64,000 nt of DNA from Pyrinomonadaceae bacterium (GCA_035472495.1 DATIPD010000006.1:37312-101311), one strand, 5' to 3'. Numbered from the stretch's first letter, positions 8,637-28,502 are shown. Notes: generated by a model not told the origin, from the letters alone. Translations and numbers: made by a program.

Positions 8637-8703
8637 GAAAAAAGCCGCGGAGCGACGCGGATAAGCGCAGATCTGAACCTTAACTAATTAAAAGCAGTCA
8701 ATA

Positions 8704-8732
8704 AAAAGGCGGCCCCTCCGAGGCTGCCTTTT
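8704..8732. terminator. bidirectional intrinsic terminator between convergent genes
   Basis: 10-bp stem AAAGGCGGCC/GGCTGCCTTT with loop CCTCCGA. An A-run lies upstream and a T-run downstream, between the NtrC-like (+) and peptidase (-) gene ends. Confidence 0.6.
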
Positions 8733-8777
8733 CAGATTCGAGTATCCGCGAAATCCCCGGCTATTAATTACCTTTCC

Positions 8778-10496
8778 TCAATTTCCGGATAGCTGCTTCA
8801 CTGCGTTTCGTTGGTAAGGCGATGTTGGTAACCATGCCGGCATCGCTTCCGTGTTGGCAACGCGCAGACCAATCACCATCCCCACCTTCGCCAGTGTTTG
8901 TGGCCCAGTCCAGTTCCAGTCAGGTTTGATCGTGTCGCTGGGCGAGTGGTAATCCGTTTGCAACCACTTTTGTGCGCGCGGAATCCAGACCGAAACATCT
9001 CCTTCCGGTCCGCCAAGCAGCATCAACGCCGGCACGCCCTTCCGCACAAACGAATAATGATCGGAACGCGTGAAGGCTTTTTCCTCCGGCATCGGATCGG
9101 GCGTGACGATAGTTCCGGTAGCGGCGGCGACATCGTCAAATACTGCTCCCAAATCTGAAAACTCGGCGCCAAAACCCACGACGCGTTTTACCGGACCATA
9201 GATTTCCGTACCGATGCCATCGAAGTTGATATCGGCAGCGATTTTGTCCAGCGGCCAGGTTGGATGGGCCACGAAACTCTCAGCGCCGAGTAGTCCATAC
9301 TCTTCACCGGTAACGGCCAAGAAAATAATCGAACGTTTCGGACGTAACGCGGGTTTAGGGAAAGTTTTCTGCAAGGCCTCGGCGATTGCGGTGATCGTAC
9401 CGACGCCGAGCGCGTTATCTGCAGCGCCGGGAAAGATGCGCCCATCGCTTTCAATTCCGTAAGCGTCATAGTGAGCGGAAAAAACGACAGCTTCTTCTTT
9501 CAACTTCGGATCGGAACCCTCAAACACCCCGGCCACGTTGCTGCTGGTTGTTTCTTCGCGCTTGATTCGCAGCGCGACGTTTGCAGTCTTTCCTAAATCA
9601 CGCGAAACAACCGCGCCGGACTTCGCCTTCGTGAAAGTGTCCGCGTAAGTTTGCCCGGTGCCGGTAAAGATTTTTTCCATAGCCGCATCGCTAACAAGCA
9701 GAACGGGCGGCAATGTAAACGGCATCCCCGATGGAGCAGCCGCAAGGCTAACGCGGCGTCGGGAAAGATAATTAGCGATCATGGAATATGGTTGCGCAGC
9801 CGAACCCGCGTTCCCCACAATCATCGCCGCTGCGCCTTTACCGAAAATGTTCATGCCGCGCACCTGTGGACTGGTAGCCCGTTTCCAGGCAGTTGCATCA
9901 ACGCCGTCGGGTTGACCATTAATGAGCACCACCACCTTGCCCTTCAAATCGAGTCCGGCGAGGTCGTCGCGTTTAAGATCGGGTGACACGACGCCATACC
10001 CGACAAAGACAATGCCGCCGTTCGCGTTAGCTTGATCGTAATTGAATGGCGGTAAGATGACGTAGTCAGAGCCGTGCTTAAGCGAGGTGTCGCCAACAGT
10101 CACTGAAGTTTCCGCCGAAACCTGCGAGGCCTTGAACTTGATCGCTTGCAGGAAGGTGCCGTTTTCACCAGCCGGCTTCAGGCCAATCTTGGCAAATTGT
10201 TCGGCAATATACTGGGCTGCTCTATCCGCGCCTGGCTGTCCCGTGCCCCTGCCTTCAAACTGCGGAGAACTCAACGAAGCGGTCGTGTCGCGGATGGTTT
10301 CAAGTTTGATGCGACCGGCTGCTTTGGTTTCAGTGGGAGTTAGGGTCGCAGAACTTTTAGCTGGGACGGGCGCGGTCTTCGTGCCCTGTTGGGCGAACGC
10401 AGACGACGACAACAATGCTGTTGAAAGAAAAAGTGCGATTAGCGCAGATGAAACGCCGCGTGGCCGATCAGAATTACGGGAAAATGGATGCATCAA
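8778..10496 (-). CDS. secreted M28-family aminopeptidase with PA domain
   Basis: Signal peptide plus M28 metal-ligand motifs (HYDAYG, GAADNALG, GEEYGLLG, DYHSPSD). Confidence 0.8.
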   Translation of the reverse strand: MMHPFSRNSDRPRGVSSALIALFLSTALLSSSAFAQQGTKTAPVPAKSSATLTPTETKAAGRIKLETIRDTTASLSSPQFEGRGTGQPGADRAAQYIAEQFAKIGLKPAGENGTFLQAIKFKASQVSAETSVTVGDTSLKHGSDYVILPPFNYDQANANGGIVFVGYGVVSPDLKRDDLAGLDLKGKVVVLINGQPDGVDATAWKRATSPQVRGMNIFGKGAAAMIVGNAGSAAQPYSMIANYLSRRRVSLAAAPSGMPFTLPPVLLVSDAAMEKIFTGTGQTYADTFTKAKSGAVVSRDLGKTANVALRIKREETTSSNVAGVFEGSDPKLKEEAVVFSAHYDAYGIESDGRIFPGAADNALGVGTITAIAEALQKTFPKPALRPKRSIIFLAVTGEEYGLLGAESFVAHPTWPLDKIAADINFDGIGTEIYGPVKRVVGFGAEFSDLGAVFDDVAAATGTIVTPDPMPEEKAFTRSDHYSFVRKGVPALMLLGGPEGDVSVWIPRAQKWLQTDYHSPSDTIKPDWNWTGPQTLAKVGMVIGLRVANTEAMPAWLPTSPYQRNAVKQLSGN

Positions 10497-10660
10497 GTTG
10501 GCTCCTAAGTTGATTCGTCTAAACGTGGGAAGAGTATACGCTGCGAAGCGGAAGATGGTTTAACCGTGCAACAGAAGACTCAAGCAGTTTAGAGTTTAAT
10601 CTTTAGCTTGTCCGTACCTAACGACACAACCTGAAGGTTGAACCCCGAACTCTTTGACGA

Positions 10661-12364
10661 TTATTCCTGCTTGAGTTGTTTACGGTCGATTTTGCCGCGG
10701 TCGTTTTTCGGCAGCGACTCAACGAATTCGAACCAGCGTGGGTATTTGTAAGGCGCAAGGCGAGCTTTTACAAAATTCCTAAGATCCTCAGCCAATCCCT
10801 CGCCCTCGATGGCCCCACTATCGACACCACTCGAACTTTGGACTTTGGACATTGGACTTTGGACACTTTTTCGTAAGACAACGAAGGCCTTCGGCTTAAC
10901 CAGTCCGTCGCCGCCGTCATGTCCGATGACGGCGCACTCAAGTACAGCATCGTGTTGCAGCAAACAGTTTTCGATCTCCGCTGGCGCGACAAAAATTCCC
11001 GAGACCTTCAACATGTCGTCGGTGCGGCCGTGATACCAGTAGTAACCTTCTTCATCTACATGAAACTGATCTCCAGTGGTGCACCAATCGCCTGCGAAAG
11101 TCTCCTTCGATTTTTCCTGAGCATTCCAGTAACACAGCGCCGCTGAGTCGCCTTTGATTTTCAATGTGCCCATGTCGTTGACTGCAACCTGGTTTCCGTC
11201 AGCAGCAACGATGCGCGCTTCGTAGCCTTCAACAAGTCGACCGAGGCTTCCCGGTTTCACATCACCCGGCCGATTTGTAATGTAGATGTGAAACATTTCG
11301 GCGGAGCCAATGCCATCACAAATCTCCACCGCCAAACTTTTCTTCCAGCGTTCGTATAACTCGACCGGTAACGCTTCGCCGGCTGAATAACAAAAGCGCA
11401 GGCTTGACAAATCGCGAGCCGCAGCGTCTGGTGCATTCAGCATCGAATTGATCATGGTTGGCACCGTGGTAAGGATCGTCGGGCGATAACGCTCAATCAC
11501 TTCGAAAAGCTTTTCCGGCGTCGAGCGCTCGGAAAAGAGTGCGGTGGCTCCGCCGACCGCGAAAGGGAACAACAAATTCGTTCCAGTGGCATAGCCGAAG
11601 AAGAGCTTGGGAACCGAAACTGTCAAATCGTTTTCATTCACGCCCATGGTTCGCTTGGCGAATACTTCGGTGTTGAAAGGCAGATCATGTTGCAGATGGA
11701 CCGCGCCCTTCGGATGGCCGGTAGACCCGGACGTGAATAACCAGATCGCGATGTCGTCACGATGAGTGTCGGCGGGCGAGCATTCATCATCGGCGGAAAG
11801 AAGGGCACCGGCGAATGATTCCCAGATCAATGAGTCATTGGTGAAGGTTTTTGTCCTCTCCCTTTGGGAGGGGATTGAGGGCAGGGCCTGTCGTCGTCCA
11901 CTAAAACCCTCTCCCCGGCCCTCTCCCAGAGGGAAAGAGGGGTCCTTTTCACCAACGAACACGACAGCGGTTAAATAACGCGCCTCACTTGCTGCCTCAC
12001 TGAATGTGTTCAGCAGCGACTCGTGCACAACAGCCACCTTCGCACGCGTGTACTCGAGGTAGTACTTGTAATCTTCCGCGGGCAGCAGCGGGTTGACCAT
12101 CGTGATGACAGCCCCAATCCGTGCTGCGCCGAACCAGCTCCACACGAACTCCGGACAGTCTGGCAACACCAACAGAACGCGATCCTCGATCTCCACGCCA
12201 AGTTCGCGCAACGTGTTGCCGACGCGGTTAGACATTCGCGCCGTCTGGCCGTAGGTAAAAGTCTGATCTTGAAAGTAAAGGCAGGTTTTGTTTTCGCGCC
12301 CTTCCTCCAGGTTGTGGTAGAGGAAGTAGTCCGCCATGTTGAAGCGCTCTGGAAAGTCAGTCAC
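10661..12364 (-). CDS. benzoate/2-aminobenzoate-CoA ligase family (aryl-CoA ligase)
   Basis: AMP-binding motif TSGSTGHPKG, benzoate-CoA-ligase-like N-terminus, C-terminal PKNDRGKIDRK. Sits next to kynA/kynU. Carries two in-frame repeat-derived inserts. Confidence 0.8.
   Translation of the reverse strand: MTDFPERFNMADYFLYHNLEEGRENKTCLYFQDQTFTYGQTARMSNRVGNTLRELGVEIEDRVLLVLPDCPEFVWSWFGAARIGAVITMVNPLLPAEDYKYYLEYTRAKVAVVHESLLNTFSEAASEARYLTAVVFVGEKDPSFPLGEGRGEGFSGRRQALPSIPSQRERTKTFTNDSLIWESFAGALLSADDECSPADTHRDDIAIWLFTSGSTGHPKGAVHLQHDLPFNTEVFAKRTMGVNENDLTVSVPKLFFGYATGTNLLFPFAVGGATALFSERSTPEKLFEVIERYRPTILTTVPTMINSMLNAPDAAARDLSSLRFCYSAGEALPVELYERWKKSLAVEICDGIGSAEMFHIYITNRPGDVKPGSLGRLVEGYEARIVAADGNQVAVNDMGTLKIKGDSAALCYWNAQEKSKETFAGDWCTTGDQFHVDEEGYYWYHGRTDDMLKVSGIFVAPAEIENCLLQHDAVLECAVIGHDGGDGLVKPKAFVVLRKSVQSPMSKVQSSSGVDSGAIEGEGLAEDLRNFVKARLAPYKYPRWFEFVESLPKNDRGKIDRKQLKQE
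10835..10866. repeat. Fam-A (GTCCAAAG-type) half element inside the CoA-ligase CDS
   Basis: Tandem ACTTTGG/ACATTGG units, the same word family as the hairpins in the tRNA array. Translated in frame as ...SPMSKVQSS... Confidence 0.7.
11855..11942. repeat. Fam-B (CCCTCTCCC...GGGAGAGGG) element inside the CoA-ligase CDS
   Basis: About 88 nt, collinear with the copy at 19231-19316 and with the inverted copy at 58540-58616. Translated in frame as FPLGEGRGEGFSGRRQALPSIPSQRE. Confidence 0.75.
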
Positions 12365-12506
12365 TCGGAGTAAAGACTCCTCTTAGCTCAGTCGTAAAAT
12401 TCACTTCGATGGGCTATCGTTATTATCGTACTTCTTGAGCGACGTCGTCGATTTCGTAGCCTATCCGCCAATCACCGGCACGAATGACGACTAAGCGATC
12501 AGATTC

Positions 12507-12899
12507 CTAAGCGCCCTCAGCTGCCAGACGTTCTTCAATGAAGCGTGTCAAAAGCAACTCGTCAGCGACTTCCATAAAAACAAACAGCGCCGCAAAACCG
12601 ATCTCGTTGGCAAAATCAACTACCTCAGCCACGATAGTAATTGTTTCGTTGTTGGGCAAGGTAACCTGCAGGCGGACTGGCTCTTTGAGTTTTACGCGGC
12701 CACCACTCAGCACGAAGCATCCGTTAAGACTGAGGCTCGTGATCGTAGCTGCACGATTAGTACGATTGCGTTCCCAGCGAACCGGGAGATTCACTTTGAC
12801 GCGCGCCGCTTCTCGGCGGTCTTTGAATGATACAGTTTTGCTCTTGTCGTCCAGCTTCATGGCCGCCAGCTTCTCGAGGCAGTTTTTGAGGATCGTCAC
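12507..12899 (-). CDS. PilZ-domain protein (c-di-GMP receptor candidate)
   Basis: 130 aa with an RRxxxR-like motif (RREAARVKV) followed by D/NxSxxG-like SLSLNG. Confidence 0.6.
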   Translation of the reverse strand: MTILKNCLEKLAAMKLDDKSKTVSFKDRREAARVKVNLPVRWERNRTNRAATITSLSLNGCFVLSGGRVKLKEPVRLQVTLPNNETITIVAEVVDFANEIGFAALFVFMEVADELLLTRFIEERLAAEGA

Positions 12900-12940
12900 T
12901 CACACGAACGAAGTAACTTTGCCGCCGCGGTTCAGCCGAT

Positions 12941-13798
12941 TCACTCCCCCGCGAACGGGCAACCAGCTGCGCCGTGGTTGAAGTCAAGATAGGTTCGCGC
13001 TTCCCACAGCTCCGGAAAAAACTTTTTATCTAAGGTCGTGCGCAGGTAACCCACACCTTCTGATCCGCCGGTGCCCCGTTTTGTGCCGACCATGCGTTCC
13101 ACCATCTTGATGTGATGCGAGCGCCAAAGCGAAAAATACTCATCATGTTCGAGTAGGGCTTCGGTCAACTGAAACTCTTCGAAACGTGCTTCAAAATGCG
13201 TGAGGATTTCAACTATAGCCTGAGTGCGTTTTCCATAGGCCTTTAGTTGCTCGCGTTCCGCGGCTGAACTTTCAACGACTGGCGCATCGAGCCCGCGACG
13301 TCGGAGTGCTGCGTAGTAGGCATCGTTCAACGAGGGAGCGGAAAACCGTTTTTGCAACCGTTCATGGGCAAACTCATCTTGCTTAAACTCGCGCAACAAA
13401 CCTTCGTGCTTGAGACCGGAAACAAACTCGATCTCGCGAAACTGCATGGATTGAAATCCGCTAGCCGGATTTAGCTGATCCCGAAAGCCCAGGAAACTGA
13501 TGGGCGACATAGTTTCCAGAATGTGAATTTGATTGACGAGCAGTTTTTCGATTTCGACGACGCGGCGCAAAGTGCGTGACGCTTGTCTGAGCTGGTCGTT
13601 ATCAAGGAAGTCGACTGCCGCATCCAGCTCGTGAAGTATTTGTTTGAACCAGAGCTCGTAAGCCTGGTGGATGGTGATGAACAGCAGTTCGTCATGGTGC
13701 ACTGGATCGGAAAGACAGTCTTGCAACGCGATCAGATCGGCGACCCGCAGGTATTTGTTGTAAGAAAGCAGGGAGTTTTTGCCGTAATCGTTGGTCAT
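12941..13798 (-). CDS. kynA: tryptophan 2,3-dioxygenase
   Basis: 285 aa with typical TDO motifs: YNKYLRVADLIALQ..., HDELLFITIHQAYELWFKQILHELD, and a GTGGS C-terminal region. Confidence 0.9.
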   Translation of the reverse strand: MTNDYGKNSLLSYNKYLRVADLIALQDCLSDPVHHDELLFITIHQAYELWFKQILHELDAAVDFLDNDQLRQASRTLRRVVEIEKLLVNQIHILETMSPISFLGFRDQLNPASGFQSMQFREIEFVSGLKHEGLLREFKQDEFAHERLQKRFSAPSLNDAYYAALRRRGLDAPVVESSAAEREQLKAYGKRTQAIVEILTHFEARFEEFQLTEALLEHDEYFSLWRSHHIKMVERMVGTKRGTGGSEGVGYLRTTLDKKFFPELWEARTYLDFNHGAAGCPFAGE

Positions 13799-13804
13799 AA
13801 GCCT

Positions 13805-13875
13805 AAGGATAAAGGATGAGGCATGAAGGATGAGCAGAAGACGTTTTCATCCCTCCGCCTTCATCCTTCAGCCTT
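13805..13875. repeat. Fam-C (GGATGAAG-type) palindromic hairpin
   Basis: Arm AAGGATAAAGGATGAGGCATGAAGGATGAGC and inverted arm TCATCCCTCCGCCTTCATCCTTCAGCC, filling the kynA-kynU spacer. Confidence 0.7.
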
Positions 13876-13876
13876 T

Positions 13877-15064
13877 TCAGAATGCCGCCCCAGCGGTCTC
13901 ATGCACTGCGAAAGCGCGTGTGTCTCTGATCGTTTTCATTTCCTGGATCACGAGTTCCAGTTCTTCGTCGGTCGTGTAAAAGTGGGGCGAGATGCGTACG
14001 CCGGCGCCAGGGCGAAAGTCTACGATGAACTCGCGCCTGATCAACTCGCTGGTGATCGCAGCCGCGTCAGGATGTCCCACAGTGATGGTGCCGCCGCGAT
14101 TGCCTGCGTCCTTCGGACTTGTCACTTCGAAACCCGCGGCTTCGGCAAGTTCGATCAAACGCGTGGTCTGCCGCACGCTCTTGTCACGAATTCTTTCGAC
14201 GCCGATCTCATTGATTATTCGGTAACCCGACTGGGCGGCGTAGAGCGCGGGAATCGCGGGTGAACCGTGCAGAAAACGGGTGATGCCAGCGGCGTAACGC
14301 AACTCAGTCTCGAAGGCGAAAGGCGCGTCGTGCGCCATCCAGCCGGTAGTCTTTGGCTGCAGTTGTTGTTGCAGATCGGGCCGCACGTAAAGATAACCAG
14401 CACCGGGCCCGCCGCACAGCCACTTCACCGAGCCACCGGTCGCAAAATCGACATTCAGCTCGGTTACGTCAAAGGGAACAGTGCCCGCTGATTGATAAGC
14501 ATCGAGCACCACAATGGCGCCAACTTCGTGCGCGCGTTCCGTAATTGCTTTGGCGTTTTGCAAAAAGCCACTCTTGAAGAGAACGTGCGAAAAGGGAACC
14601 AGTAACGTCTCTTCATCAATCGCCGCGAGAAAGCGCTCGAGTGGAATCGTTATGCCGTCGTCTGAGGCAACGGTCTCGATTCTTAGCTTGCCATCGCGCG
14701 CATGCGCTTCGTAAACATACATGACCGACGGGAAGTTCAGTTCTGAATAAACGATTTTGTTTCGCTTGGGCGTCGGCTCGAAGCAGGAAAGAATCAGCGA
14801 CTGGCAGATGGAAACATTTTGGTGCATCACGACGCTGCCGGGCGGCGCCCCGATGATGCGGCCGACCTCGTCGCCGACGGTCACGGGCATGTTCCACCAG
14901 CCTTCCGCCCAGGCGCGCACACCGCGCGTGGCCCATGTTTCAGCGTAATCGTTAAGGCGTGAAAAAGTTTCCCGGGGCATCGCGCCAAGACTATGTGAAA
15001 TCAAGTAAACAGTCTTGTCCAGAATAGGAAACTCGCTACGCCACTTAAGAAGCTCGTCAGTCAA
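13877..15064 (-). CDS. kynU: kynureninase-like class-V PLP enzyme
   Basis: 395 aa with a class-V aminotransferase fold and a kynureninase-like SVKWLCGGPGAGYLYV segment. Lies immediately downstream of kynA. Confidence 0.65.
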   Translation of the reverse strand: MTDELLKWRSEFPILDKTVYLISHSLGAMPRETFSRLNDYAETWATRGVRAWAEGWWNMPVTVGDEVGRIIGAPPGSVVMHQNVSICQSLILSCFEPTPKRNKIVYSELNFPSVMYVYEAHARDGKLRIETVASDDGITIPLERFLAAIDEETLLVPFSHVLFKSGFLQNAKAITERAHEVGAIVVLDAYQSAGTVPFDVTELNVDFATGGSVKWLCGGPGAGYLYVRPDLQQQLQPKTTGWMAHDAPFAFETELRYAAGITRFLHGSPAIPALYAAQSGYRIINEIGVERIRDKSVRQTTRLIELAEAAGFEVTSPKDAGNRGGTITVGHPDAAAITSELIRREFIVDFRPGAGVRISPHFYTTDEELELVIQEMKTIRDTRAFAVHETAGAAF

Positions 15065-15302
15065 AAAGGTTTCTCCGCTCAGTTCCTAAGATTGCTTTAA
15101 TCTATCATACCAACTGACGATCTTTCTTGCTCATCAAAGCCATCCGCAGATTACGGAGAAGACGAAACAAAAGGCAGGAGACAAGGCGAAATATGTCTCC
15201 GTTAAACTCCGAGCGTTTCTGTGTAATCGGCGTAATCTGTGGATGCCTGTTACTACTAGTCAGTGGCTGAACATTGAGGCATGGTAAAGTTAGTCCCGCC
15301 AC

Positions 15303-16775
15303 ATGTGGAAATTTAAGAACCCAATTCGCCATTCGATTCCTGAAACGGCCTGGCCCTCATCAGCCGAAGCGTCGCAGTCGTTGCTTTATCAATCAATCAA
15401 TATTGGCAATTTGCGGGCAAGCAGCCGCACCTGGGTCCCGGCAATGGTGCCCTGGCGCGCCACTGAAGATGGGTTCGTTACGCAGGAGAATCTCGATTGG
15501 TATCGGCGGTTTGCCGCCGGGCACCCGGGAGTTCTGGTAGTCGAAGCGACGGGCGTTCGCGACATACCGAGTGGGCCGCTGTTGCGCATTGGACACGATC
15601 GGTTTGTTCCGGGTTTGAAAAAACTGGTGCAGGCAGTGCGCGAAGCCAGCGACGGCGAGACGAAACTCTTCATTCAAATCATTGACTTCCTCGCGGTGAA
15701 ACGCCGGCCGGAGCCGGAGAAGTTTTTCACGCGCTTCCTGCAAATAAGCGATCGCCAGCGCGACGCGCTCGCGAGTCTCACCAGCGATCCGACCTGGCGA
15801 GAGCGTGACGAAGTTGACATCAGAGAGTTCCTTACCAAGACAAATGACGAGACACTCGATCAAGTGCTAGATCAGCGCGAGTTGGAATCGCTGCGTTTCG
15901 GTTATCGCGAGCACGTGACTGATGTACACCTGCCGCACGTGCAGGAGTTGCCTCAAGTCTTGCCAAACATTTTTGCGGAAGCTGCAGGTCGCGCTCGCGC
16001 TGCGGGTTTCGACGGCGTCGAGTTGCACTACGCCCATGCCTACACGATGGCCGGTTTCCTCAGTGCGCTCAACAACCGTGAAGACGGCTACGGCGGATCG
16101 CGCGAGAACAGAATTCGCTTGCCGCTCGAAGTGTTTCAGTCAGTGCGATCGGTGGTGGGCGATGACTACGTTGTGGGTGTGCGGTTTCTGGCGGACGAAG
16201 TAATTGCCGGTGGAAGTCGCGTGGCTGATGCGAATTACTTCGGAGTTGAATTTGCGCGCGCGGGTTTCGATTTTCTCTCGCTTTCCAAAGGCGGAAAATT
16301 TGAAGACGCGCAGCAGCCAAAGATCGGTCAGGCAGTTTATCCCTACACCGGACAAAGCGGTTATGAATGCATGCCGACGGTGCTTTCGGATGCAACCGGG
16401 CCGTTTGGTCGTAGCGTTCCTCTGGTTTCGAAAATCAAACGAGCTGTAACTGAAGCCGGATTCACCACGCCAGTGGTCGCGACCGGAGGGATTACAACTT
16501 TCGAACAGGCCGAAGCGATCTTGCAGGAAAAACAGGCCGACATCGTGGGTCTAGCGCGTCAGGCACTCGCCGATCCGGATTGGTTCATCAAAGTGAAATT
16601 AGGCCGCGGCGCTGATGTGAGACGCTGCACTTACACGAACTATTGTGAAGCACTCGATCAGGCGCATCGCGCCGTTACCTGCAAGCTCTGGGACCGACTT
16701 GATTTGCAGGAGCCAGGAATTGCGACGGTGGATGAAGGACGACGACGATTGCTCGCACCGGAATGGCAGCGCTAG
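15303..16775 (+). CDS. Old-Yellow-Enzyme-family NADH:flavin oxidoreductase (candidate reductase half of anthraniloyl-CoA monooxygenase/reductase)
   Basis: 490 aa with an OYE TIM-barrel signature (VPAMVPW...EDG, VVEATGV, GFDGVELHYAHAY, ATGGI). The start is uncertain. Confidence 0.8.
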   Translation: MWKFKNPIRHSIPETAWPSSAEASQSLLYQSINIGNLRASSRTWVPAMVPWRATEDGFVTQENLDWYRRFAAGHPGVLVVEATGVRDIPSGPLLRIGHDRFVPGLKKLVQAVREASDGETKLFIQIIDFLAVKRRPEPEKFFTRFLQISDRQRDALASLTSDPTWRERDEVDIREFLTKTNDETLDQVLDQRELESLRFGYREHVTDVHLPHVQELPQVLPNIFAEAAGRARAAGFDGVELHYAHAYTMAGFLSALNNREDGYGGSRENRIRLPLEVFQSVRSVVGDDYVVGVRFLADEVIAGGSRVADANYFGVEFARAGFDFLSLSKGGKFEDAQQPKIGQAVYPYTGQSGYECMPTVLSDATGPFGRSVPLVSKIKRAVTEAGFTTPVVATGGITTFEQAEAILQEKQADIVGLARQALADPDWFIKVKLGRGADVRRCTYTNYCEALDQAHRAVTCKLWDRLDLQEPGIATVDEGRRRLLAPEWQR

Positions 16776-17899
16776 ACCTTCGCCGCCTCATACTCTGCCA
16801 TAAATGCCGGATCTCTCCGCCGCAGATCATCATCACTAACGCGCCCACTTCTGGTCATTAGCACATAAGCAAGCTGCAGCGGCGAGAGGTTCATGTAGTC
16901 TTTTGCATTTTCAAACCACAGCATGCTGTCGTACGCCGCAGACTGATACTCTGCAATCACTGGTTTGCGAGTTGTCTCGAATGCCGGCAGCGCGTCCGTG
17001 ACCGCTGAGTTCTTCTGGAAGCACTCAAAGAGCGCGATGGAATCTTCCAGCGCCAGCTTAGTTCCTGAGCCAATAGAAAAGTGCGCGGTGTGCAGTGCGT
17101 CACCGAGCATGACGGTCTGATCAAAAAACCAGTTGTCGTTTTTTACCAGCAGGAAGTTAATCCATTTCGAATTATTTGAGCGCAGTTGGTGGCCTTCGAG
17201 GTCTAGCGCAAAAACTTCTTCGAGATACCTGCGAGTATCCGCCTCATTCATCTCAGCAAAGCCGGCCGCCTCCCACGTGTTTTGATCGCATTCAATAATG
17301 AATGTGCTGGTGGTTTGGTTGAACTTGTAAGAGTGCGCGGCGAACACACCGGCAGCGCTTTCGCGGAAAGTCAGTGTCAGACCATGGAAGAGTTTGTTGG
17401 TCCCGAACCAGATGTAACGGTTCGGGCGAACATCAAGAGTTGGGTGAAAGTTGTCCGCATACTGTTTCCGGGCCGTGCTATTGACGCCGTCGGCGGCCAC
17501 AAATAGATCGCAGTCGACCCGCAACTGCTCAAGATCGTTTACTTCTGTTTTGAAAAGCAGCCGCGCGCCCAGTTCTTCGCAACGTCGCTGCAGTATCTTG
17601 AGCAACTGCAGGCGCGAGATGCCAGAAAAGCTGTTGCCACGAATAGAAATCTTGCTGTCACGATGAACTACATCGACGTTGTCCCACGCTGCGAATGATG
17701 AGGTGATCGCAGCGTGTGACTCTTCATCCGCCGCGCGCAGATTTGCCAGGGTCTTTCCCGAAAAGACCACGCCCCAACCGAACGTATCATCGGGGCCATT
17801 GCGCTCGTAGACTGTAATGTCATGCGCGGGGTTCGCCCGTCGCATGAGAATGGCGAAATACATTCCCGCCGGCCCGCCACCGATGATGTTGATCTTCAT
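16772..17899 (-). CDS. FAD-dependent aromatic monooxygenase (candidate monooxygenase half of anthraniloyl-CoA monooxygenase/reductase)
   Basis: 375 aa with the dinucleotide fold MKINIIGGGPAGMYFA, DTFGWGVVFS and a GDALHTAHFSIGSG motif. Convergent with the OYE gene, with a 4-nt overlap. Confidence 0.8.
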   Translation of the reverse strand: MKINIIGGGPAGMYFAILMRRANPAHDITVYERNGPDDTFGWGVVFSGKTLANLRAADEESHAAITSSFAAWDNVDVVHRDSKISIRGNSFSGISRLQLLKILQRRCEELGARLLFKTEVNDLEQLRVDCDLFVAADGVNSTARKQYADNFHPTLDVRPNRYIWFGTNKLFHGLTLTFRESAAGVFAAHSYKFNQTTSTFIIECDQNTWEAAGFAEMNEADTRRYLEEVFALDLEGHQLRSNNSKWINFLLVKNDNWFFDQTVMLGDALHTAHFSIGSGTKLALEDSIALFECFQKNSAVTDALPAFETTRKPVIAEYQSAAYDSMLWFENAKDYMNLSPLQLAYVLMTRSGRVSDDDLRRRDPAFMAEYEAAKV

Positions 17900-18031
17900 T
17901 TCTTACTTACGTGTCTTCGCCGGCCCCCTTCCTTTGCATCAGTTCAAATTGAATTCGTTGAGCACCGATTGAGGTGTTTGCTGACAATGGCTTCATGTAT
18001 CACCTTCTAAGATGACAACGGTGTGTTCAGG

Positions 18032-19228
18032 TCAGTCCTTCAGTAGTTGGTTGGCAATAATTAGTTTCTGTATCTCGGAAGTGCCTTCGTAGATTCTGAG
18101 GGCGCGGACGTCACGATAAAGTCGCTCAACGACACTGCCGCGGACGAGTCCTGCACCGCCGTGAATCTGCACTGCCTGATCGACAATGCGGCAGGCTGCT
18201 TCCGTCGCGAAGAGTTTTGCTTCGCTGGCCTCGCGCGTCACGCGCCCGTTGCCGGTGTCCCTCAAGTGCGCGGCACGGTAAACCAGCAGCCGAGCCGCAT
18301 CGAGTTCCGTGATCATGTCGGCAAGTTTTTCCTGGACCAGCTGATGTTCGGCAAGGAAGCGACCAAACTGTTTTCGGGTCACCGCGTGACGCACCGACTC
18401 GTCCAGCGCGCGGCGCGCCATGCCACAGGCCGCCGCGCCCACGCTTGCGCGGAAAGTGTCCATCGTCCGCATGGCCAGCACAAATCCATCGCCTTCAGCT
18501 CCAACCATGTTCTCCGCGGGCACGCGACAACTCTGAAACTCAATTTCGCCGATCGGGTGCGCGGCAATCATCGCCGTTCGCTCAAGCACATTGAAGCCCG
18601 GCATCTTTGCCCCAACGATAAACGCCGACAAAGCCGCGCGCCCGTTGGCATCAGTTCCGGTGCGCGCAAACACGGTGTAGAAATCTGCCACGCCGGCGTT
18701 AGAGATAAACCGCTTCCGGCCGTCGATTACGTAAGCATCGCCGTCTAACTTTGCCGTGGTTTTGATAGCAGCGACGTCAGAACCGGCGTCTGGTTCGGTC
18801 AGGGCAAACGCGGCGATTGCTTTGCCCTCAACCGCGCGCGCCAGCCAAAAATCGCGCACGTGTTCCGGGGCCGCCTGACTAATTGCATACGTTCCCAGAC
18901 CCTGCATAACGAACGCCAAGTCAGCGAGCGCAGAAGAGTAGGAAAGCGCTTCACGCACCAGACAAAGCGCGCGCACGTCCAGCTTTGAACCGGGCGAAGC
19001 AACGGCGTAGCGCAACGCATCGGCATTCGCGAGCGTCGTTACAAACTCGCGCAGTTGGGCTTCGACGTCGCGTTCCTCGGCTGCGCGTGACTCGATGTCG
19101 CTTTCGATCAGCGTTTGTAAATCGGCTGCCAGCTCGCGATGCTCGGCAGTGAAGAAGGGAAGTTGTTCTATAAACTTGTCCATAATCATAAAGACGAACG
19201 TTGGATCTCGTACCTCATTTGTTTTCAC
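18032..19228 (-). CDS. acyl-CoA dehydrogenase
   Basis: 398 aa with ACAD motifs ([10 protein letters not shown], the [10 protein letters not shown]-terminal signature). Confidence 0.9.
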
Positions 19229-19230
19229 TT

Positions 19231-19316
19231 TCCCGTCCCTTTGGGAAGGGGATTGAGGGGAAGGGTTTGGTGCGTGCTAAACCCTCTCCCCCACTCTCTC
19301 CCAGGGGGAGAGGGAG
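19231..19316. repeat. Fam-B (CCCTCTCCC...GGGAGAGGG) intergenic element
   Basis: CCCGTCCCTTTGGGAAGGGGATTGAGGGG...AAACCCTCTCCCCCACTCTCTCCCAGGGGGAGAGGG, between the ACAD start and the hydratase stop. Confidence 0.75.
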
Positions 19317-19322
19317 CAAGGT

Positions 19323-20117
19323 CTACTTGAATTTGGCGGCACGTTTAGCAACAAACGCCTCGTACGCTTCGCGATAATCGGAATGCTGCATACAGATCGC
19401 CTGGGCTTGTGCTTCGCATTCCAGCGCTGCCTCCAGGCCCATATCTGCTTCGCGGTCTAACATCTCTTTTGTTTTGGCGAGCGCAAAGCCCGGACCCTTT
19501 GCGAGTCGCTCGGCAAACTCTCGAGTGGTTGCCGCCAGTTGATCGCCAGGAACCACGCGGTTGTAAAGTCCGATTCGCTCAGCCTCTGCAGCAGAAATGA
19601 AGTCGCCGGTATAGAGCAACTCGGTTGCCTTGGCTAGCCCGACGGTGCGCGGCAACAGGTAGGCGGCGCCCATGTCCGCACCGGAAAGCCCAACTTTCAC
19701 AAAGAGAAAAGCAATCTTTGCCGTGTCAGACGCGATGCGAATGTCAGAGGCCAGCGCAATACAGGCACCGGCGCCGGCGGTCGTACCGTTAAGACTGGCG
19801 ATGACCGGCTTTCGCAAAGCGCGCATGTTCTGGATGAGCTCGCAAGTCATGCGTGTGAACTCAAGCAAACCTGACATGTCACACTTGAATAGTTCGCCGA
19901 TGATGTCGTGCACGTCGCCGCCAGAACAAAAAGCCCGTCCTGCTCCCGTCAGCACAACTACCCGCGCGCCGGCTTCCTCTCGCAACGCCGCAAACGTGTC
20001 GGTGAGTTCGCGATAAACTTCAAACGTTAAGGCGTTAAGCCGGTCGGGACGGTTGAGCGTGATGGTGACCACGCCGTCTTCGCTCTGTTCGTACAGAAAA
20101 CTTTTCGGTTTGTTCAT
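19323..20117 (-). CDS. enoyl-CoA hydratase/isomerase family protein
   Basis: 264 aa with the crotonase fold (VVVLTGAGRAFCSGGD, NGTTAGAGA). Confidence 0.9.
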   Translation of the reverse strand: MNKPKSFLYEQSEDGVVTITLNRPDRLNALTFEVYRELTDTFAALREEAGARVVVLTGAGRAFCSGGDVHDIIGELFKCDMSGLLEFTRMTCELIQNMRALRKPVIASLNGTTAGAGACIALASDIRIASDTAKIAFLFVKVGLSGADMGAAYLLPRTVGLAKATELLYTGDFISAAEAERIGLYNRVVPGDQLAATTREFAERLAKGPGFALAKTKEMLDREADMGLEAALECEAQAQAICMQHSDYREAYEAFVAKRAAKFK

Positions 20118-20127
20118 GCGCGAACGA

Positions 20128-20928
20128 CTAGTTGTTGCCTTCTTCGATTATTTTAACTTTAGGGAGCGCACCAGATTTCAAGATCAAAGCAATATCTTCC
20201 GCTGACTGCCTGGTGAAGCGTCCGGAGATCTCGCCCTGATCGTTTATTTGGCTTTTGATAAAGGCGACGGATTTGATCTCGCCGTTGTAGATCACCGCGA
20301 CATATTCACTAATGTGCGCGCCGGTCCAGGCGCCAAACTTTTCCGCTCCTTCTGGTCTTAACGAAAACGCGATGGTGTACTCGTCGGGATTGGAACCAGC
20401 AACGGCAGTGGCGTTGCGCAAGTCGCCGCTCGCAACAATTGCGGGAGCTTCAACAACTCCCCAACGCCGTTCTCTGGCGTCGGCCGGCGCGTGCTGTCGT
20501 TCAGTGTAGGGCAGTACTAGCCGATTCGGGAGAGGCTTGCCACCGAACGAAGCGAGTGCCGCTTCTTTCGAGTCATACAATTTGGCCGGCGCTGGACTTG
20601 GAGGACTTACCAGATGACTGATTTCCAGCTGTCCCTCAGAACTCAACAGGCTTTTCAAACGTTCGCGGTCTGAAACGTTGGGAAGGCTAACTAATATCCG
20701 CCCGTTCGGGAGCGGCTTCACGTCATAATTAGAAAGACCAAGCGCGCTCAAACGGCTATCCAGTGTTGTGACCGCGTGATTTGTTGCCGCCTCACGATCT
20801 GGAACTTCCTGGTCGATCTCCAGAGTGACGTGCCAATCAAACGGTTGATGACGGTGTAACAACGTGCAGGCCATAACCGGGACGGCCAGGAATACGAGCG
20901 CCGCATGAGTGAGCGGTCTGAGCTTCAT
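20128..20928 (-). CDS. secreted protein resembling the SecD periplasmic P1-head domain (no TM core)
   Basis: Signal/anchor helix, then LDSRLSALGLSNYDVKPLPNGRILVSLPNV and VAVIYNGEIKSVAFIKSQINDQGEISGRFTRQSAEDIALILKSGALP. Both mirror SecD P1 motifs. Confidence 0.5.
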   Translation of the reverse strand: MKLRPLTHAALVFLAVPVMACTLLHRHQPFDWHVTLEIDQEVPDREAATNHAVTTLDSRLSALGLSNYDVKPLPNGRILVSLPNVSDRERLKSLLSSEGQLEISHLVSPPSPAPAKLYDSKEAALASFGGKPLPNRLVLPYTERQHAPADARERRWGVVEAPAIVASGDLRNATAVAGSNPDEYTIAFSLRPEGAEKFGAWTGAHISEYVAVIYNGEIKSVAFIKSQINDQGEISGRFTRQSAEDIALILKSGALPKVKIIEEGNN

Positions 20929-21329
20929 CAGTCGAGTACAGCCACTGCTTCAATTTCCACTTGAGCGTTGTCGTCCACCAAAGCTTTCACTTCAACCAGC
21001 GCCATGGCGGGAAAGTGTTTTCCCATGTGCGCGCGATAACACTGGCCCACTTCATCGCGTCGGGACACGTAAGCCTGTTTGTTTGTCACATAGATAGTCA
21101 GGCGCGCAATCTGATCAGGACGACCGCCGGCGGCGGTTACCACGGTGACGACGTTAGCAAGCGTGCGATCGAATTGCGCGACAAAATCGTTACTGACAAC
21201 GATGCGGTTTTCATCCCACGCGATTTGGCCGGCTACGAAAAGCAGCTTGCCGCCTGGCTCAGCTAGCACGCCGTTGGAGTAACCGCGTGGTGCGCCCAGC
21301 GACTCCGGGTTGATTAGTTTGAAAGTCAT
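20928..21329 (-). CDS. RidA (YjgF/L-PSP) family enamine/imine deaminase
   Basis: 133 aa with a RidA-family pattern (GYSNGV, VAGQIAWD, PAMALVEV). Confidence 0.85.
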   Translation of the reverse strand: MTFKLINPESLGAPRGYSNGVLAEPGGKLLFVAGQIAWDENRIVVSNDFVAQFDRTLANVVTVVTAAGGRPDQIARLTIYVTNKQAYVSRRDEVGQCYRAHMGKHFPAMALVEVKALVDDNAQVEIEAVAVLD

Positions 21330-21361: not shown

Positions 21362-21532
21362 GCCAAGACGCCAAGAACGCCAAGAGATTATCCGCAGATT
21401 ACACCGATTATAGGAATTTCAAACAGCAAAGGAGCTAGCGGAAAACCAGGCCGCAAGAATACCGGCAAGATTAACTTTGCTGTCGATCTGAGTAATCTGC
21501 GAATAATCTCCTGGCGCTGATGGCGTCTTGGC
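21362..21532. repeat. Fam-J large inverted repeat (GCCAAGA/GCAGATTA words)
   Basis: Arm GCCAAGACGCCAAGAACGCCAAGAGATTATCCGCAGATTAC and inverted arm GTAATCTGCGAATAATCTCCTGGCGCTGATGGCGTCTTGGC, separated by about 90 nt. Confidence 0.65.
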
Positions 21533-21598: not shown

Positions 21599-22129
21599 TT
21601 AATCAAGCACCTGGTCGAGTCGAGAAGCGAGCTGGCCGGCCAGGTTGCCGTTCGGATCGAGCCCGCCAATTGCGTCGCCGGCGTTGCCATGTTTGTCGAT
21701 GATGATGAAGGAGGGCAGCTGGTCGACGCCAAGTTTTTTGGAAGTCGTACCATCCGGATCGCGAAGCACGGTCACCTTCAGACCATACTTAGTGGCGAAC
21801 GCCCGCAGCTGGTCGTCACTCGCAAAGTTCTTCGACTTCGCGTCTTCCGATTCAGTGCTCACCCAGTAGACGACAACGCCGCGGTCGCTGTATTCGTCGG
21901 CCAATTTCCGCACGCCTTGCAACTGGGTTTTCGACAGCGGCAGCCAGGAGGCGCCAAATGCCAGCACCACAACTTCGCCGCGCAGGCTGTCAGAAGTGAT
22001 GTGCTGACCGTCGATTGAGCGCAGGGAAAACTCGACCGGCACTCCGCCGCGGTTCTGGGCCAACGCCATCGAAGTGCCCAGCAAAACCAGTAGGAACATT
22101 GCCAATAGGGATTTGGAATTTCTCAGCAT
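21599..22129 (-). CDS. TlpA/redoxin-like thioredoxin-fold protein lacking the CxxC motif
   Basis: Signal peptide and redoxin fold. The position of the usual WCxPC motif reads ASWLPLS, with no cysteines. Confidence 0.65.
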   Translation of the reverse strand: MLRNSKSLLAMFLLVLLGTSMALAQNRGGVPVEFSLRSIDGQHITSDSLRGEVVVLAFGASWLPLSKTQLQGVRKLADEYSDRGVVVYWVSTESEDAKSKNFASDDQLRAFATKYGLKVTVLRDPDGTTSKKLGVDQLPSFIIIDKHGNAGDAIGGLDPNGNLAGQLASRLDQVLD

Positions 22130-22238
22130 TTACTCTCCTTTGCCCAGATTCAAAGAACCGGGCACTGCGTTAGATGAGTGGGGCAGTGTTTTAGTTGGTC
22201 ACAGTTGCGACCGTTTCGAGGCCACCCTCGACACGTTC

Positions 22239-22928
22239 TTACGCGCTCTGAAAAGGGGAATTCGGCGGTGAAACGCCGAAAACTTCCCGGTGCAAAGCGG
22301 CGTAATCATCCCACGTGTCCATGTCGCGTGCAATCAAATTCGTTTTCACTTCAACGCGACGGACCAGCGCCTGGTGCTGGTTGAAAAAAGCTTTCAGGCC
22401 GGTATTTGGATCGAGCTGAAGCAGCTCTTCGCGGAAGCTCAGATCGACTAGCACCGGATGCCCGCCGCGTTGGTTGCACGTTGGCTTCACTAATAGCGCG
22501 CCGTTTTTCCATTCGGCAATAACTTGACGGACCACGTCTCCCGGCACTGCAGCATGGTCAACCGGATTGATGACTACGACTTTGCTCACCGCTGAAAGTG
22601 CATCGACCCCGCAGGCAATCGACGCATTCATCTCGCTGTGAGGGTCAGGATTGACGGCGAACGTCAGATCAAGATTGCGCAGTCGTTCTTTCAGTTCGGC
22701 AGCTCGCTTGTCCTGCCCGATGACGATTACGAATTGCTCAACTCCGCCGGCGCGTAGATTGTCGATGCAAGTTTCGACGACTGTTTTTGAACCAAAGGGA
22801 AGGAGGGGCTTGAACGCACCCATGCGGGACGAACGACCGGCGGCAAGGATGATGGCGGCAACGCTAAAGTCTGGAGTCGTGAGTCTGGAGTCTGGAGTCC
22901 GCGGATTTGGCAAAGGACTTTCACTCAT
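22239..22928 (-). CDS. MobA/MocA-like molybdenum cofactor nucleotidyltransferase
   Basis: AAIILAAGRSSRMGAFKPLLPFG motif (NTP_transf_3). Lies downstream of the molybdenum hydroxylase genes. Confidence 0.75.
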   Translation of the reverse strand: MSESPLPNPRTPDSRLTTPDFSVAAIILAAGRSSRMGAFKPLLPFGSKTVVETCIDNLRAGGVEQFVIVIGQDKRAAELKERLRNLDLTFAVNPDPHSEMNASIACGVDALSAVSKVVVINPVDHAAVPGDVVRQVIAEWKNGALLVKPTCNQRGGHPVLVDLSFREELLQLDPNTGLKAFFNQHQALVRRVEVKTNLIARDMDTWDDYAALHREVFGVSPPNSPFQSA

Positions 22929-22967
22929 CTTGGAAACGCTTGAACTCCATACTGGAGACTCACGACG

Positions 22968-23957
22968 CTAGACTAGTTCTTGCAGTGCTTTGATCGTGTA
23001 CTGTCTGGCCATTTGCTTGCGCCAGTTCATCACGAAGTCAGTGTTGTCGAGCGGGCGGGCTTTGATGTAGGCGGCTTCGGCGGCGGCTTGAATGTGATCA
23101 GTATCGAACGGCTGACCGATCAATGCCTGGTTCGCCTCGATGATGTTGAGCGGCGAAGGCGCAATGCCGCCGAGGATGATTTTTGCATCAGCGACGACGC
23201 GGTCGCTTCCGGTTCCGACATCCTTGATCCATGCCGCCACGCCCAGCACGGGAAAATCAAAGGCGCCCCGGCGACGCAGTTTTTGATACGACGCACGCCA
23301 GCCGTTGAGCGCGGGCAGATGAATATCGACTAGCAACTCGTCGGGTCGCTTCTTCAGGTAGTCGATCCCGTCGTCGTTGTAGAAACCGGCGGCATCGATC
23401 ATGCGTTCACCCAGAGTGGACAGCAGACGAAACTTCGCGCCAATCGCCACCATCACGGGGACTAAATCAGACGATTGCACTGCCCAGCATTTCGAGCTGC
23501 CCGGTGCTACCCAACAAACATCGCCGTCTTTTTTCAAACAGAAGTTAATGCCTTTGCGCCATTCGTAGTTCTGATCGTAGTAGTTACAGCGCGTATCGAG
23601 CAGCAGATTGCCGCCGATAGTGCCCATGTTGCGGAGGATGGGCGTCGAGATTGTGCGCGCTGCTTGAGCGATGACCGGATAGTCGCGCAGGATGATTGGG
23701 TGTTCGACGATGTCGGTGAGCGTTACGGAAGCGCCGATCCGAATTCCCGATTTGCCATCGCCAGTTATCTGGTTCAACTCCGGAACGCGCATCACGGAAA
23801 TCACTGTGCGCGGCGTCTGCTGCCGGCGCTTCATGTTGGGATAGAGATCGGTTCCCCCGGCGACAAACTGTGCGGTCGGCCCAACGTCGCCGACAATCTT
23901 CACCGCTTCCGCGATGGTGCGCGGCACGCGGTATTCAAATTTGGGCAGACGCATCAT
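22968..23957 (-). CDS. molybdenum-hydroxylase FAD-binding subunit with four-Cys insertion (4-hydroxybenzoyl-CoA reductase beta-like)
   Basis: CoxM/XdhB-type FAD domain (AGGTDLYPNMK) plus the insertion C-x15-C-x7-C-x8-C (CNYYDQNYEWRKGINFCLKKDGDVCWVAPGSSKC). Confidence 0.85.
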   Translation of the reverse strand: MMRLPKFEYRVPRTIAEAVKIVGDVGPTAQFVAGGTDLYPNMKRRQQTPRTVISVMRVPELNQITGDGKSGIRIGASVTLTDIVEHPIILRDYPVIAQAARTISTPILRNMGTIGGNLLLDTRCNYYDQNYEWRKGINFCLKKDGDVCWVAPGSSKCWAVQSSDLVPVMVAIGAKFRLLSTLGERMIDAAGFYNDDGIDYLKKRPDELLVDIHLPALNGWRASYQKLRRRGAFDFPVLGVAAWIKDVGTGSDRVVADAKIILGGIAPSPLNIIEANQALIGQPFDTDHIQAAAEAAYIKARPLDNTDFVMNWRKQMARQYTIKALQELV

Positions 23958-23990
23958 AAAGATTTTGTTTGTTCAGGACACCGACACGCG

Positions 23991-24446
23991 CTAGAGCGTT
24001 TTGTAAACTCTGCTCAGCTCGCCAAAGAATTCGGTACGGCGCATTTCGAGATCACCTTTGTAAGACTCCATTTTCTCCAAACTAATTGCCCGCGCAAGGA
24101 TCAGATCAGTTTTGTAACAGAGGATGTTCTCTCCATATTCTCTTAGAAGCTTTCGACCTGTTTCGTCCCCCAGAAGAATCAGTTTTGGTTCAGCGCTCGA
24201 CAATTGGTTGAATCCATCAGTTAGTTCTTCTCTTAGTTGCTCAAGCTTGTTATTTGCGGTTTCTTTAGTTTCCGTCGGCCATGCACGCTCGGTCCAGTTG
24301 AAGGCATATGCCCAATGCCTGAGAGCAAGTTGATGAAAAGTGGCCACTTCTAGCGACACGAGCTCCAACATTTCTCGCTGTCGCTGAAGACGCTCCTTTT
24401 CTATCGTCTGACGGTGATTGGCTCGGGTTAAGAAATAAGTCGTCAC
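23991..24446 (-). CDS. hypothetical protein
   Basis: 151-aa ORF with a GTG start and a helical, coiled-coil-like sequence. A hydrophobic segment lies just upstream in frame, so the start is uncertain. Confidence 0.35.
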   Translation of the reverse strand: MTTYFLTRANHRQTIEKERLQRQREMLELVSLEVATFHQLALRHWAYAFNWTERAWPTETKETANNKLEQLREELTDGFNQLSSAEPKLILLGDETGRKLLREYGENILCYKTDLILARAISLEKMESYKGDLEMRRTEFFGELSRVYKTL

Positions 24447-24545
24447 GCCACTGATGATCGCCCCGAGGCCAATTTGACTGCCGTGTCCAATATTTCGAGT
24501 TTAGTCACCATGCATTATTCCAAGGTCAGCGCGAAAACTGATGAG

Positions 24546-24712
24546 TCACGAATGCACAGCGACGCAGACCCATATCTTTCCCGTCGCCACCTTCCGTAGG
24601 TGTCAATACACGTAGGGTTCCGCCAGTAAACTGACGGAACAGCGCCTGGTCCAAAACGTCCGTTGCGGCTTTTTTCTGTTTAGGCAATGCAGGTAATCAG
24701 GCATATTCCTGC
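24546..24712 (-). pseudogene. degenerate duplicate of the 3' end of the Mo-subunit gene
   Basis: By eye, about 75% identical to 26040-26210 (e.g. the shared TCTTTCCCGTCGCCACCTTC). Encodes ...LRVLTPTEGGDGKDM..., then loses frame through small indels. Confidence 0.7.
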
Positions 24713-24718
24713 GTTCAT

Positions 24719-25177: not shown

Positions 25178-25337
25178 ACCTTACACCCTTCATGATCTCT
25201 TCCTCACGAATCCACGGCCACGCTCGGCATGTCCGTCTCAGGCGAACGTGGATCAATCGGCCTTACCATTTATCTGATAATGATCACCACCGTCATCGAG
25301 CCCTTTGTCCGCGTCTCTTTCGTCTAGCAGTGTCAAC

Positions 25338-25451: not shown

Positions 25452-25453
25452 AG

Positions 25454-26020: not shown

Positions 26021-26039
26021 GCAAATTCTCTGGCAGTGA

Positions 26040-28493: not shown

Positions 28494-28502
28494 GAAAAAT
28501 AT

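Follow-up and report, generated by a model that had tools for sequence, protein, structure and literature searches.

A probable tryptophan-to-anthraniloyl-CoA gene cluster of Pyrinomonadaceae with a candidate two-protein monooxygenase/old yellow enzyme system

Results

Layout of the gene cluster

We analyzed a stretch of 64,000 nucleotides (the window) from the genome of a Pyrinomonadaceae bacterium (GCA_035472495.1; DATIPD010000006.1:37312-101311), which carries at positions 10661-21329 a gene cluster for a predicted route of tryptophan and anthranilate breakdown through anthraniloyl-coenzyme A (anthraniloyl-CoA). At its center lie two flavoprotein genes: one for a stand-alone monooxygenase dependent on flavin adenine dinucleotide (FAD), P0002, and one for an old yellow enzyme (OYE)-family protein, P0001, which is the candidate reductase partner of P0002. 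The host assembly comprises 5.5 Mb in 23 contigs and is 98.9% complete, the window being C6:37312-101311.

Calls of open reading frames (ORFs), together with Pfam and NCBIfam assignments, placed ten genes in the span, in three transcription units (Table 1): i) a minus-strand unit that runs, from high to low coordinates, through RidA, a SecD/F P1-head-like gene, an enoyl-CoA hydratase (ECH), an acyl-CoA dehydrogenase (ACAD) and P0002; ii) the P0001 gene alone on the plus strand, convergent with the P0002 gene; and iii) a minus-strand unit of kynureninase-like, tryptophan 2,3-dioxygenase (TDO), PilZ and ligase genes, which diverges from the P0001 gene over 238 nt. The P0001 and P0002 genes overlap in their stop codons, within a CTAG palindrome that reads TAG on either strand. 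An initial annotation had described the locus as a tryptophan-to-anthraniloyl-CoA cluster with a split monooxygenase/reductase; every gene that it listed was recovered at its coordinates, as were the DTFGWGVVFS motif (in P0002) and the 4-nt convergent overlap, and the PilZ and SecD/F P1-head-like genes were found in addition. That the cluster is no chance grouping is shown by dozens of related genomes with the same gene order.

Table 1. Genes and other features of the cluster, with positions counted from the first nucleotide of the window.
Feature	Position	Strand	Evidence
Aryl-CoA ligase, putative anthranilate-CoA ligase (567 aa)	10661-12364	-	TIGR02262 benzoate-CoA ligase family, 525.7 bits, cut-off 375
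PilZ-domain protein (130 aa)	12507-12899	-	PF07238, 42.7 bits
Tryptophan 2,3-dioxygenase, TDO (285 aa)	12941-13798	-	PF03301, 210 bits
Kynureninase-like enzyme dependent on pyridoxal 5'-phosphate (PLP) (395 aa)	13877-15064	-	Aminotran_5 + KYNU_C
Divergent intergenic region between kynureninase-like operon and OYE gene	15065-15302		238 nt
OYE-family flavoprotein P0001 (490 aa), proposed trans-acting ene-reductase	15303-16775	+	PF00724, 136 bits
Overlap of two convergent stop codons, CTAG	16772-16775		Sequence itself
Stand-alone FAD monooxygenase P0002 (375 aa)	16772-17899	-	NF006101 positions 1-382, E 3.1e-144
Acyl-CoA dehydrogenase, ACAD (398 aa)	18032-19228	-	Pfam ACAD N, M, C domains
Enoyl-CoA hydratase-family protein, ECH (264 aa)	19323-20117	-	NF006107 (PRK08258), 384 bits, cut-off 330
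SecD/F P1-head-like protein (266 aa)	20128-20928	-	PF22599 + PF21760
RidA-family protein (133 aa), first gene of the RidA-to-monooxygenase operon	20928-21329	-	PF01042, 74 bits

P0002 is related over its full length to the monooxygenase half of a fused enzyme

Residues 1-372 of P0002 match the first half (positions 1-382 of 768) of the NCBIfam model NF006101, which describes the bifunctional salicylyl-CoA 5-hydroxylase/oxidoreductase of the fused type (PRK08255). The whole-protein score (482 bits) falls below the cut-off of that model (1078): the chain ends at residue 375 and lacks the C-terminal YqjM-type OYE domain. Identity between P0002 and the N-terminal domains of fused proteins was 44-50% (47% for the fusion of Ralstonia), and the flavin motifs GGGPAG, DG and GD are invariant. 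The nearest solved structure is VioD (3c4a and 8gqr; E 7e-59, full length), which differs in acting in the violacein pigment pathway on a free indole-derived intermediate that bears no CoA thioester. P0002 is present as a single copy in the genome. On the tree of monooxygenases, a branch with 100/100 support divides the stand-alone from the fused forms; the tree is unrooted, so that neither form can be assigned as the older. By sequence, P0002 is a stand-alone homolog of the fused enzyme's monooxygenase half.

A variant of this monooxygenase was seen in a sister genus, where the ORF (L014:7994-10012(+) and L015:7998-10067(+)) extends by ~300 residues into a Hint domain that starts with CFRAGTEV, contains a nested DUF559/Vsr-like endonuclease domain and is followed by the end of the ORF ~3 residues past the Hint C-terminal block. 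A further protein, P0107 (487 aa), combines Hint_2 with FAD_binding_3. The extension in L014 and L015 looks like an intein-like or bacterial intein-like (BIL) element on the C-terminus of a metabolic enzyme.

P0001 belongs to an OYE branch other than that of the fused reductase domain

When both flavoproteins were compared with characterized families, P0002 matched the fused family and P0001 favored other OYE models: its NCBIfam scores were 159 bits for BaiCD, 148 for the mycofactocin OYE and 123 for NF006101 (positions 544-673 only). BLASTP aligned about 200 residues of P0001 with the Ralstonia fusion, at 36% identity. Among fused proteins from Ralstonia, Gemmatirosa and four acidobacterial genomes, the reductase domains share 56-60% identity, as against 31-37% with P0001. 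Likewise, against solved OYEs of the YqjM/XenA type the fused reductase domain scored 296 bits (5ocs), as compared with 118 bits for P0001.

Phylogeny agreed with the scores. A maximum-likelihood tree was computed for 40 OYE domains. The fused reductase domains group together on it (100/99), within the stand-alone YqjM-type OYEs. The P0001 family (100/100) falls inside another clade (100/99), whose other members are multidomain OYE-Fer4_20-Pyr_redox_2 proteins and OYEs of ~375 aa that bear a CxxCxxCx11C motif. Thus P0001 was not found to be an ortholog of the fused reductase domain, either on the tree or by identity (31-36%, about 200 residues). Since P0001 sits in a different and strongly supported OYE clade, the arrangement is not a gene fission; what the sequences point to is a distinct monooxygenase lineage together with an independently recruited OYE, drawn from the FadH/naphthoyl-CoA-reductase-like branch. 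Of the split enzyme that had been proposed, therefore, the monooxygenase half stands as a true homolog (NF006101, E 3e-144), but P0001 is not its detached reductase half.

The architecture of P0001 both recalls and departs from that of its relatives. Its catalytic pattern (H242-x2-H245 plus Y247) is invariant or nearly so in the family, and its barrel, modeled with confidence, matches OYE structures in Foldseek; the highest query-normalized TM-scores (0.59-0.60) were to 2-naphthoyl-CoA reductase (NCR, 6qkg) and to FadH, the 2,4-dienoyl-CoA reductase of Escherichia coli (1ps9). Both are iron-sulfur OYEs that reduce C=C bonds of CoA thioesters, NCR doing so on an aromatic ring system. The nearest relatives outside the family carry an OYE domain followed by a four-cysteine motif, often with Fer4_20 and Pyr_redox_2. 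P0001 has neither the complete four-cysteine [4Fe-4S] motif nor the C-terminal FAD/NAD(P)H-binding domains of the FadH/TMADH/NCR type, its 490 residues containing the OYE domain alone by Pfam. Its tail (C442-x5-C448-x11-C460) keeps three of the four motif cysteines, with Thr at the second position; all four are kept in a deeper branch of the family (P0127, genome G278), and Cys356 is also invariant in the family. Two elements of P0001 are absent from the iron-sulfur relatives: an N-terminal extension of 25 residues and an insertion of 75 residues (137-211), modeled as a helical subdomain with a predicted local distance difference test (pLDDT) of about 90. In sequence and model, P0001 fits a predicted role as CoA-ester ene-reductase. 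It is the only PF00724 gene of the nearly complete host genome, and no gene for a reductase domain of the fused type was found elsewhere in that genome.

The OYE tracks the stand-alone monooxygenase among Acidobacteriota

Co-occurrence was counted in a sample of 301 Acidobacteriota genomes, with stand-alone monooxygenases taken as open frames of 375-420 aa, or longer by read-through, at 49-100% identity. Such a monooxygenase was present in 14 of the 301 genomes, 13 of which also encode a full-length P0001-type OYE (at least 51% identity), and the same OYE occurred in only three of the 28 genomes with a fused enzyme, although relatedness among the genomes inflates these counts. In G003 and G022 the OYE lies apart from the fused enzyme.

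Gene order was compared over 80 Pyrinomonadaceae/Blastocatellia loci fetched with a P0001-type OYE. The monooxygenase adjoins the OYE in 64 of them, 56 convergent and eight co-directional, and 59 of the 80 have the kynureninase-like gene divergent from the OYE, mostly together with TDO and ligase genes; RidA is present in nearly all related clusters. As for the convergent overlapping pair of the initial annotation, the convergent orientation is thus kept in 56 of 64 loci but the 4-nt overlap is not, the gap between monooxygenase and OYE genes ranging from 4 to 4477 nt in relatives. More distant lineages place the OYE before the monooxygenase with overlapping stop and start codons (TGATG in G228, ATGA in G157; L143 and L157 overlap by 4 nt), and L158 has the order ligase-OYE-monooxygenase. 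Moreover, the OYE and monooxygenase trees share sister pairs (G228 with G157, and G221 with G291) and the f1 clade. A predicted complex of P0002 with P0001, built with an alignment for each (score 0.00, mark 0.32), gave no verdict and was not used as evidence.

Two apparent fusions of OYE and monooxygenase were rejected. One, an open frame of 924 aa in G228, arises by read-through of the monooxygenase frame in high-GC DNA; the two genes there are in different frames and meet at a TGATG junction. The other, the database protein P0167 (587 aa), joins an OYE part matching residues 180-468 of P0001 to residues 100-374 of the monooxygenase and has Arg-rich stretches; most likely it is a gene call frameshifted across a co-directional OYE-monooxygenase pair.

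Toxin-antitoxin-like pairs (Rv0078B/DUF6036; PIN/PhdYeFM) lie between the ACAD gene and the monooxygenase or OYE gene in three loci (L001 9146-9925, L002 9137-9991 and L143 2897-3624), and the monooxygenase-OYE junctions appear to take up insertions often.

Homology and context point to a tryptophan-to-anthraniloyl-CoA route

The assignment of the cluster to a tryptophan-to-anthraniloyl-CoA pathway, as initially annotated, is well supported by homology and context (family assignments, solved relatives and the companion genes of a Ralstonia cluster), and the cluster very probably serves this route. TDO aligns over its full length with the TDO of Xanthomonas (2nw7, E 1e-56) and has histidines at the aligned positions of the FI..HQ..ELW and WR..H segments, which we take to be the distal and proximal haem histidines. 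For the kynureninase-like enzyme, the sole one encoded in the genome, the best solved relative is the kynureninase of Pseudomonas fluorescens (1qz9, E 1.5e-49, full length), and a lysine is aligned in the K(Y/W)L.GGPG segment, presumably the PLP lysine. The ligase passes the TIGR02262 subfamily cut-off, with an anthranilate-CoA ligase (4wv3, E 3.8e-120) as best solved relative, slightly ahead of benzoate-CoA ligases; anthranilate is its putative substrate, as judged from context.

Companion genes were compared with those of a cluster on the megaplasmid of Ralstonia solanacearum (CP023017.1, 51684-59956), known by annotation only, in which a 785-aa fusion is accompanied by genes for a short-chain dehydrogenase/reductase (SDR), MarR, ECH, ACAD, an annotated 2-aminobenzoate-CoA ligase, a thioesterase and RidA, and by neither TDO nor kynureninase. 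ECH (50%), ACAD (52%) and RidA (42%) of the window are matched there at the level of orthologs, while the Ralstonia ligase is of another subfamily. The SDR of the host is encoded with a second ECH at the very end of another contig (C15:380349-382262; L154 7349-9262); it is 49% identical to the SDR in the cluster of genome G131, and the SDR/second-ECH pair directly follows RidA in many relatives.

No cyclase-type kynurenine formamidase gene lies within the window, in line with the initial annotation, other formamidase types not having been searched. A search of the genome for kynB returned three PF04199 genes elsewhere, the best of which (C20:88168-88797) scores 149 bits with TIGR03035, below the cut-off of 223, and has unrelated neighbors. 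Genes for 3-hydroxyanthranilate dioxygenase (in a search without a working positive control) and for anthranilate 1,2-dioxygenase were not found in the genome.

Host and spread

The sole sequencing run that contains the stretch is of soil-metagenome DNA, perhaps from the sample of origin, and no RNA run containing it is listed. The nearest relatives of both flavoproteins come from metagenome-assembled genomes labeled Pyrinomonadaceae or Blastocatellia (Acidobacteriota). The stand-alone monooxygenase is very common, with at least 7988 matches, the best 120 of which are 76-100% identical and 363-487 aa long; the P0001 family is comparably large, with more than 8000 relatives at E 1e-50 or better among the matches listed. 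Database entries for the monooxygenase read 'FAD-dependent monooxygenase' or 'anthraniloyl-CoA monooxygenase', those for the OYE read '2,4-dienoyl-CoA reductase-like' or 'dimethylglycine catabolism A', and the pairing of the two carries no annotation.

Other features of the locus

Both promoter regions of the cluster contain inverted pairs of GTAATCTGYG (15145-15154 with 15232-15241, and 21393-21402 with 21492-21501), i.e., four copies in the window versus 0.13 expected, with a pair spacing of 87-99 nt. Genome-wide there are 57 copies, versus five for the reversed control, often as minus/plus pairs 75-140 nt apart. The motif had been considered as a cluster-specific operator and was dropped as evidence of co-regulation, being dispersed over the genome; it is either an intergenic element of dispersed type or a site recognized by a global factor. 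In 12 of 45 relatives, the same intergenic region carries related 8-mers.

The PilZ gene holds the same position between TDO and ligase genes in 24 of the 80 related loci, and L001 has a DinB_2 gene instead, which separates TDO from the kynureninase-like gene. The SecD/F P1-head-like gene between ECH and RidA recurs in seven of the 80 loci and in L001, L014 and L015, and is missing from most others. Upstream of RidA (21599-29130), the window encodes a redoxin-fold protein, a MobA-like nucleotidyltransferase and a molybdenum enzyme of the xanthine dehydrogenase family (FAD, molybdenum cofactor (MoCo) and 2Fe-2S subunits); L001 and L002 have these genes ahead of the cluster as well, so that the linkage is conserved.

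Discussion

A proposed pathway with a reductase acting in trans

From gene identities, homology, phylogeny, synteny and co-occurrence we infer substrates, an order of steps and a reduction in trans, as follows: i) TDO would open the indole ring of tryptophan; ii) a formamidase encoded elsewhere, or spontaneous hydrolysis, would yield kynurenine; iii) the kynureninase-like enzyme would release anthranilate; iv) the ligase would form anthraniloyl-CoA; v) P0002 would hydroxylate anthraniloyl-CoA at C5, para to the amino group, as does the corresponding half of the fused enzyme in Azoarcus; vi) P0001 would serve P0002 as a trans-acting ene-reductase; vii) RidA may assist the loss of the amino group from the enamine product (enamine/imine deamination); and viii) the crotonase-family enzyme, ACAD and the SDR/ECH pair encoded elsewhere would then open and shorten the ring. 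Taken as a whole, with P0001 as the partner of P0002, this pathway is the best explanation of the cluster and, in our judgment, probably the right one.

The fused anthraniloyl-CoA monooxygenase/reductase of Azoarcus, according to work of the Fuchs laboratory, reportedly hydroxylates anthraniloyl-CoA in para position and then hydrogenates it to a non-aromatic CoA ester. For Arthrobacter, a cyclohexanedione-carboxyl-CoA species has been proposed (PMC3534580).

The system in the window resembles the fused one in several respects: its monooxygenase is homologous over the full length to the monooxygenase half; it has the same companions (PRK08258-type crotonase, ACAD, RidA and aryl-CoA ligase), with the SDR elsewhere in the genome; and by analogy its chemistry would be alike (para-hydroxylation followed by hydrogenation). 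It differs in that the fused reductase domain is absent and the candidate reductase is encoded by a separate gene, belongs to another OYE clade and bears the insertion and the cysteine tail, and also in that TDO and kynureninase-like genes are built into the cluster. Full-text literature searches on the enzyme names together with old yellow enzyme, kynureninase or Acidobacteria gave no account of the two-gene form, and GapMind omits the pathway for lack of knowledge.

Observations weighing against the proposal, and alternative explanations

Several observations weigh against the proposed pathway: i) TDO scores 253 bits with TIGR03036, below the cut-off of 390; ii) the kynureninase-like enzyme scores 151 bits with TIGR01814, below the equivalog cut-off of 246; iii) the ligase, whose putative substrate is assigned from context, is only 32% identical to the '2-aminobenzoate-CoA ligase' of Ralstonia; iv) the cysteine-bearing segments of P0001 (331-365 and 445-490) were modeled with pLDDT <50; v) in genome G131 (L055, C17) an intact fused enzyme (9313-11589) is immediately preceded by a P0001-type OYE (63% identical, 7743-9209), in an operon ordered SDR-RidA-ECH-ACAD-OYE-fusion-thioesterase, and the reductase domain of that fused enzyme retains its ELHMAHGY motif; and vi) the OYE lies with SDR-ECH-RidA-ACAD genes and away from the monooxygenase in G015 and G278, and has no monooxygenase nearby in L156. 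Because G131 has both the OYE and an intact fusion, the OYE is not strictly a substitute for an absent domain, and the copy in G131 is either redundant as a reductase or hints at a further step of reduction.

Points v and vi favor an alternative in which the reduction performed by the OYE is another step of this pathway, acting for example on a by-product or on a ring intermediate that has already been deaminated, with the monooxygenase making aromatic 5-hydroxyanthraniloyl-CoA or using another reductase; the position of the OYE in a clade of CoA-ester-reducing FadH/NCR-like enzymes would suit such a role as well. We regard this as unlikely, for the following reasons: i) most fused clusters (those of Ralstonia, G002, Gemmatirosa and G120) are without this OYE, so that its step is not generally needed; ii) the OYE follows the stand-alone monooxygenase from genome to genome (13 of 14), with translational coupling in several lineages; iii) the host genome has no other OYE to hydrogenate the hydroxylated intermediate; iv) fused clusters contain orthologs of the downstream genes, and by implication the reduced alicyclic product is the same in both systems; and v) the G131 OYE is nested in the crown of its family, and the operon order there equals that of operons with an OYE followed by a stand-alone monooxygenase, which points to a secondary replacement of the monooxygenase gene in G131.

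It is more improbable still that the monooxygenase acts on another aryl-CoA, such as salicylyl-CoA or a substituted benzoyl-CoA, with the TDO and kynureninase-like genes as mere neighbors. NF006101 is indeed named for salicylyl-CoA 5-hydroxylase, the ligase scores nearly equally with benzoate-CoA ligases and anthranilate-CoA ligase, and three loci (L017, L019 and L020) have the monooxygenase without TDO or kynureninase genes. Yet the kynureninase-like gene stands directly beside the OYE in most of the related loci, as counted above; TDO also belongs to the G002 cluster around a fused enzyme and to L157, an OYE-monooxygenase cluster; and RidA, a constant member, fits an amino or enamine substrate. 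Plain gene fission, in which P0001 and P0002 would be the separated halves of an ancestral fused enzyme, agrees with the adjacency of the genes and with their FAD monooxygenase and OYE domain content but is hardly credible given the separate OYE clades, the lower score of P0001 for NF006101 than for BaiCD, and a gene order that is convergent or, where co-directional and coupled, reversed (OYE, then monooxygenase).

A possible second assembly of the oxygenase/reductase pair and its significance

The proposed pathway, with P0001 as partner of P0002, bears on how such pairs arise. Because P0001 comes from the FadH/NCR-like branch and not from the fused reductase domain, the system would be a second, independently assembled oxygenase/reductase pair. 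More tentatively, the dearomatizing hydroxylation and hydrogenation of anthraniloyl-CoA may have been assembled twice: once as a fusion with a YqjM-type OYE, and once as a two-protein system in which a stand-alone monooxygenase delivers its unstable product to an OYE that descends from CoA-ester reductases of the iron-sulfur type, perhaps still with a cluster ligated by three cysteines and perhaps docking via its helical insertion, this second form being the main route of tryptophan/anthranilate breakdown in Pyrinomonadaceae. We see this wider scenario as possible, and hold it with less assurance than the pathway itself.

The CoA-dependent aerobic route of anthranilate is one of the few cases in which an aromatic ring is oxygenated and hydrogenated together. 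A natural two-protein version, if true, would make the half-reactions separable and the channeling of the labile intermediate directly addressable, and it would give a role to a very large family of OYEs of 480-500 residues that bear generic names only. The two-gene system is widespread and conserved in Pyrinomonadaceae, with a function that is predicted from sequence, and it would offer a concrete, testable catabolic trait for these bacteria, which are common in soils and poorly cultured.

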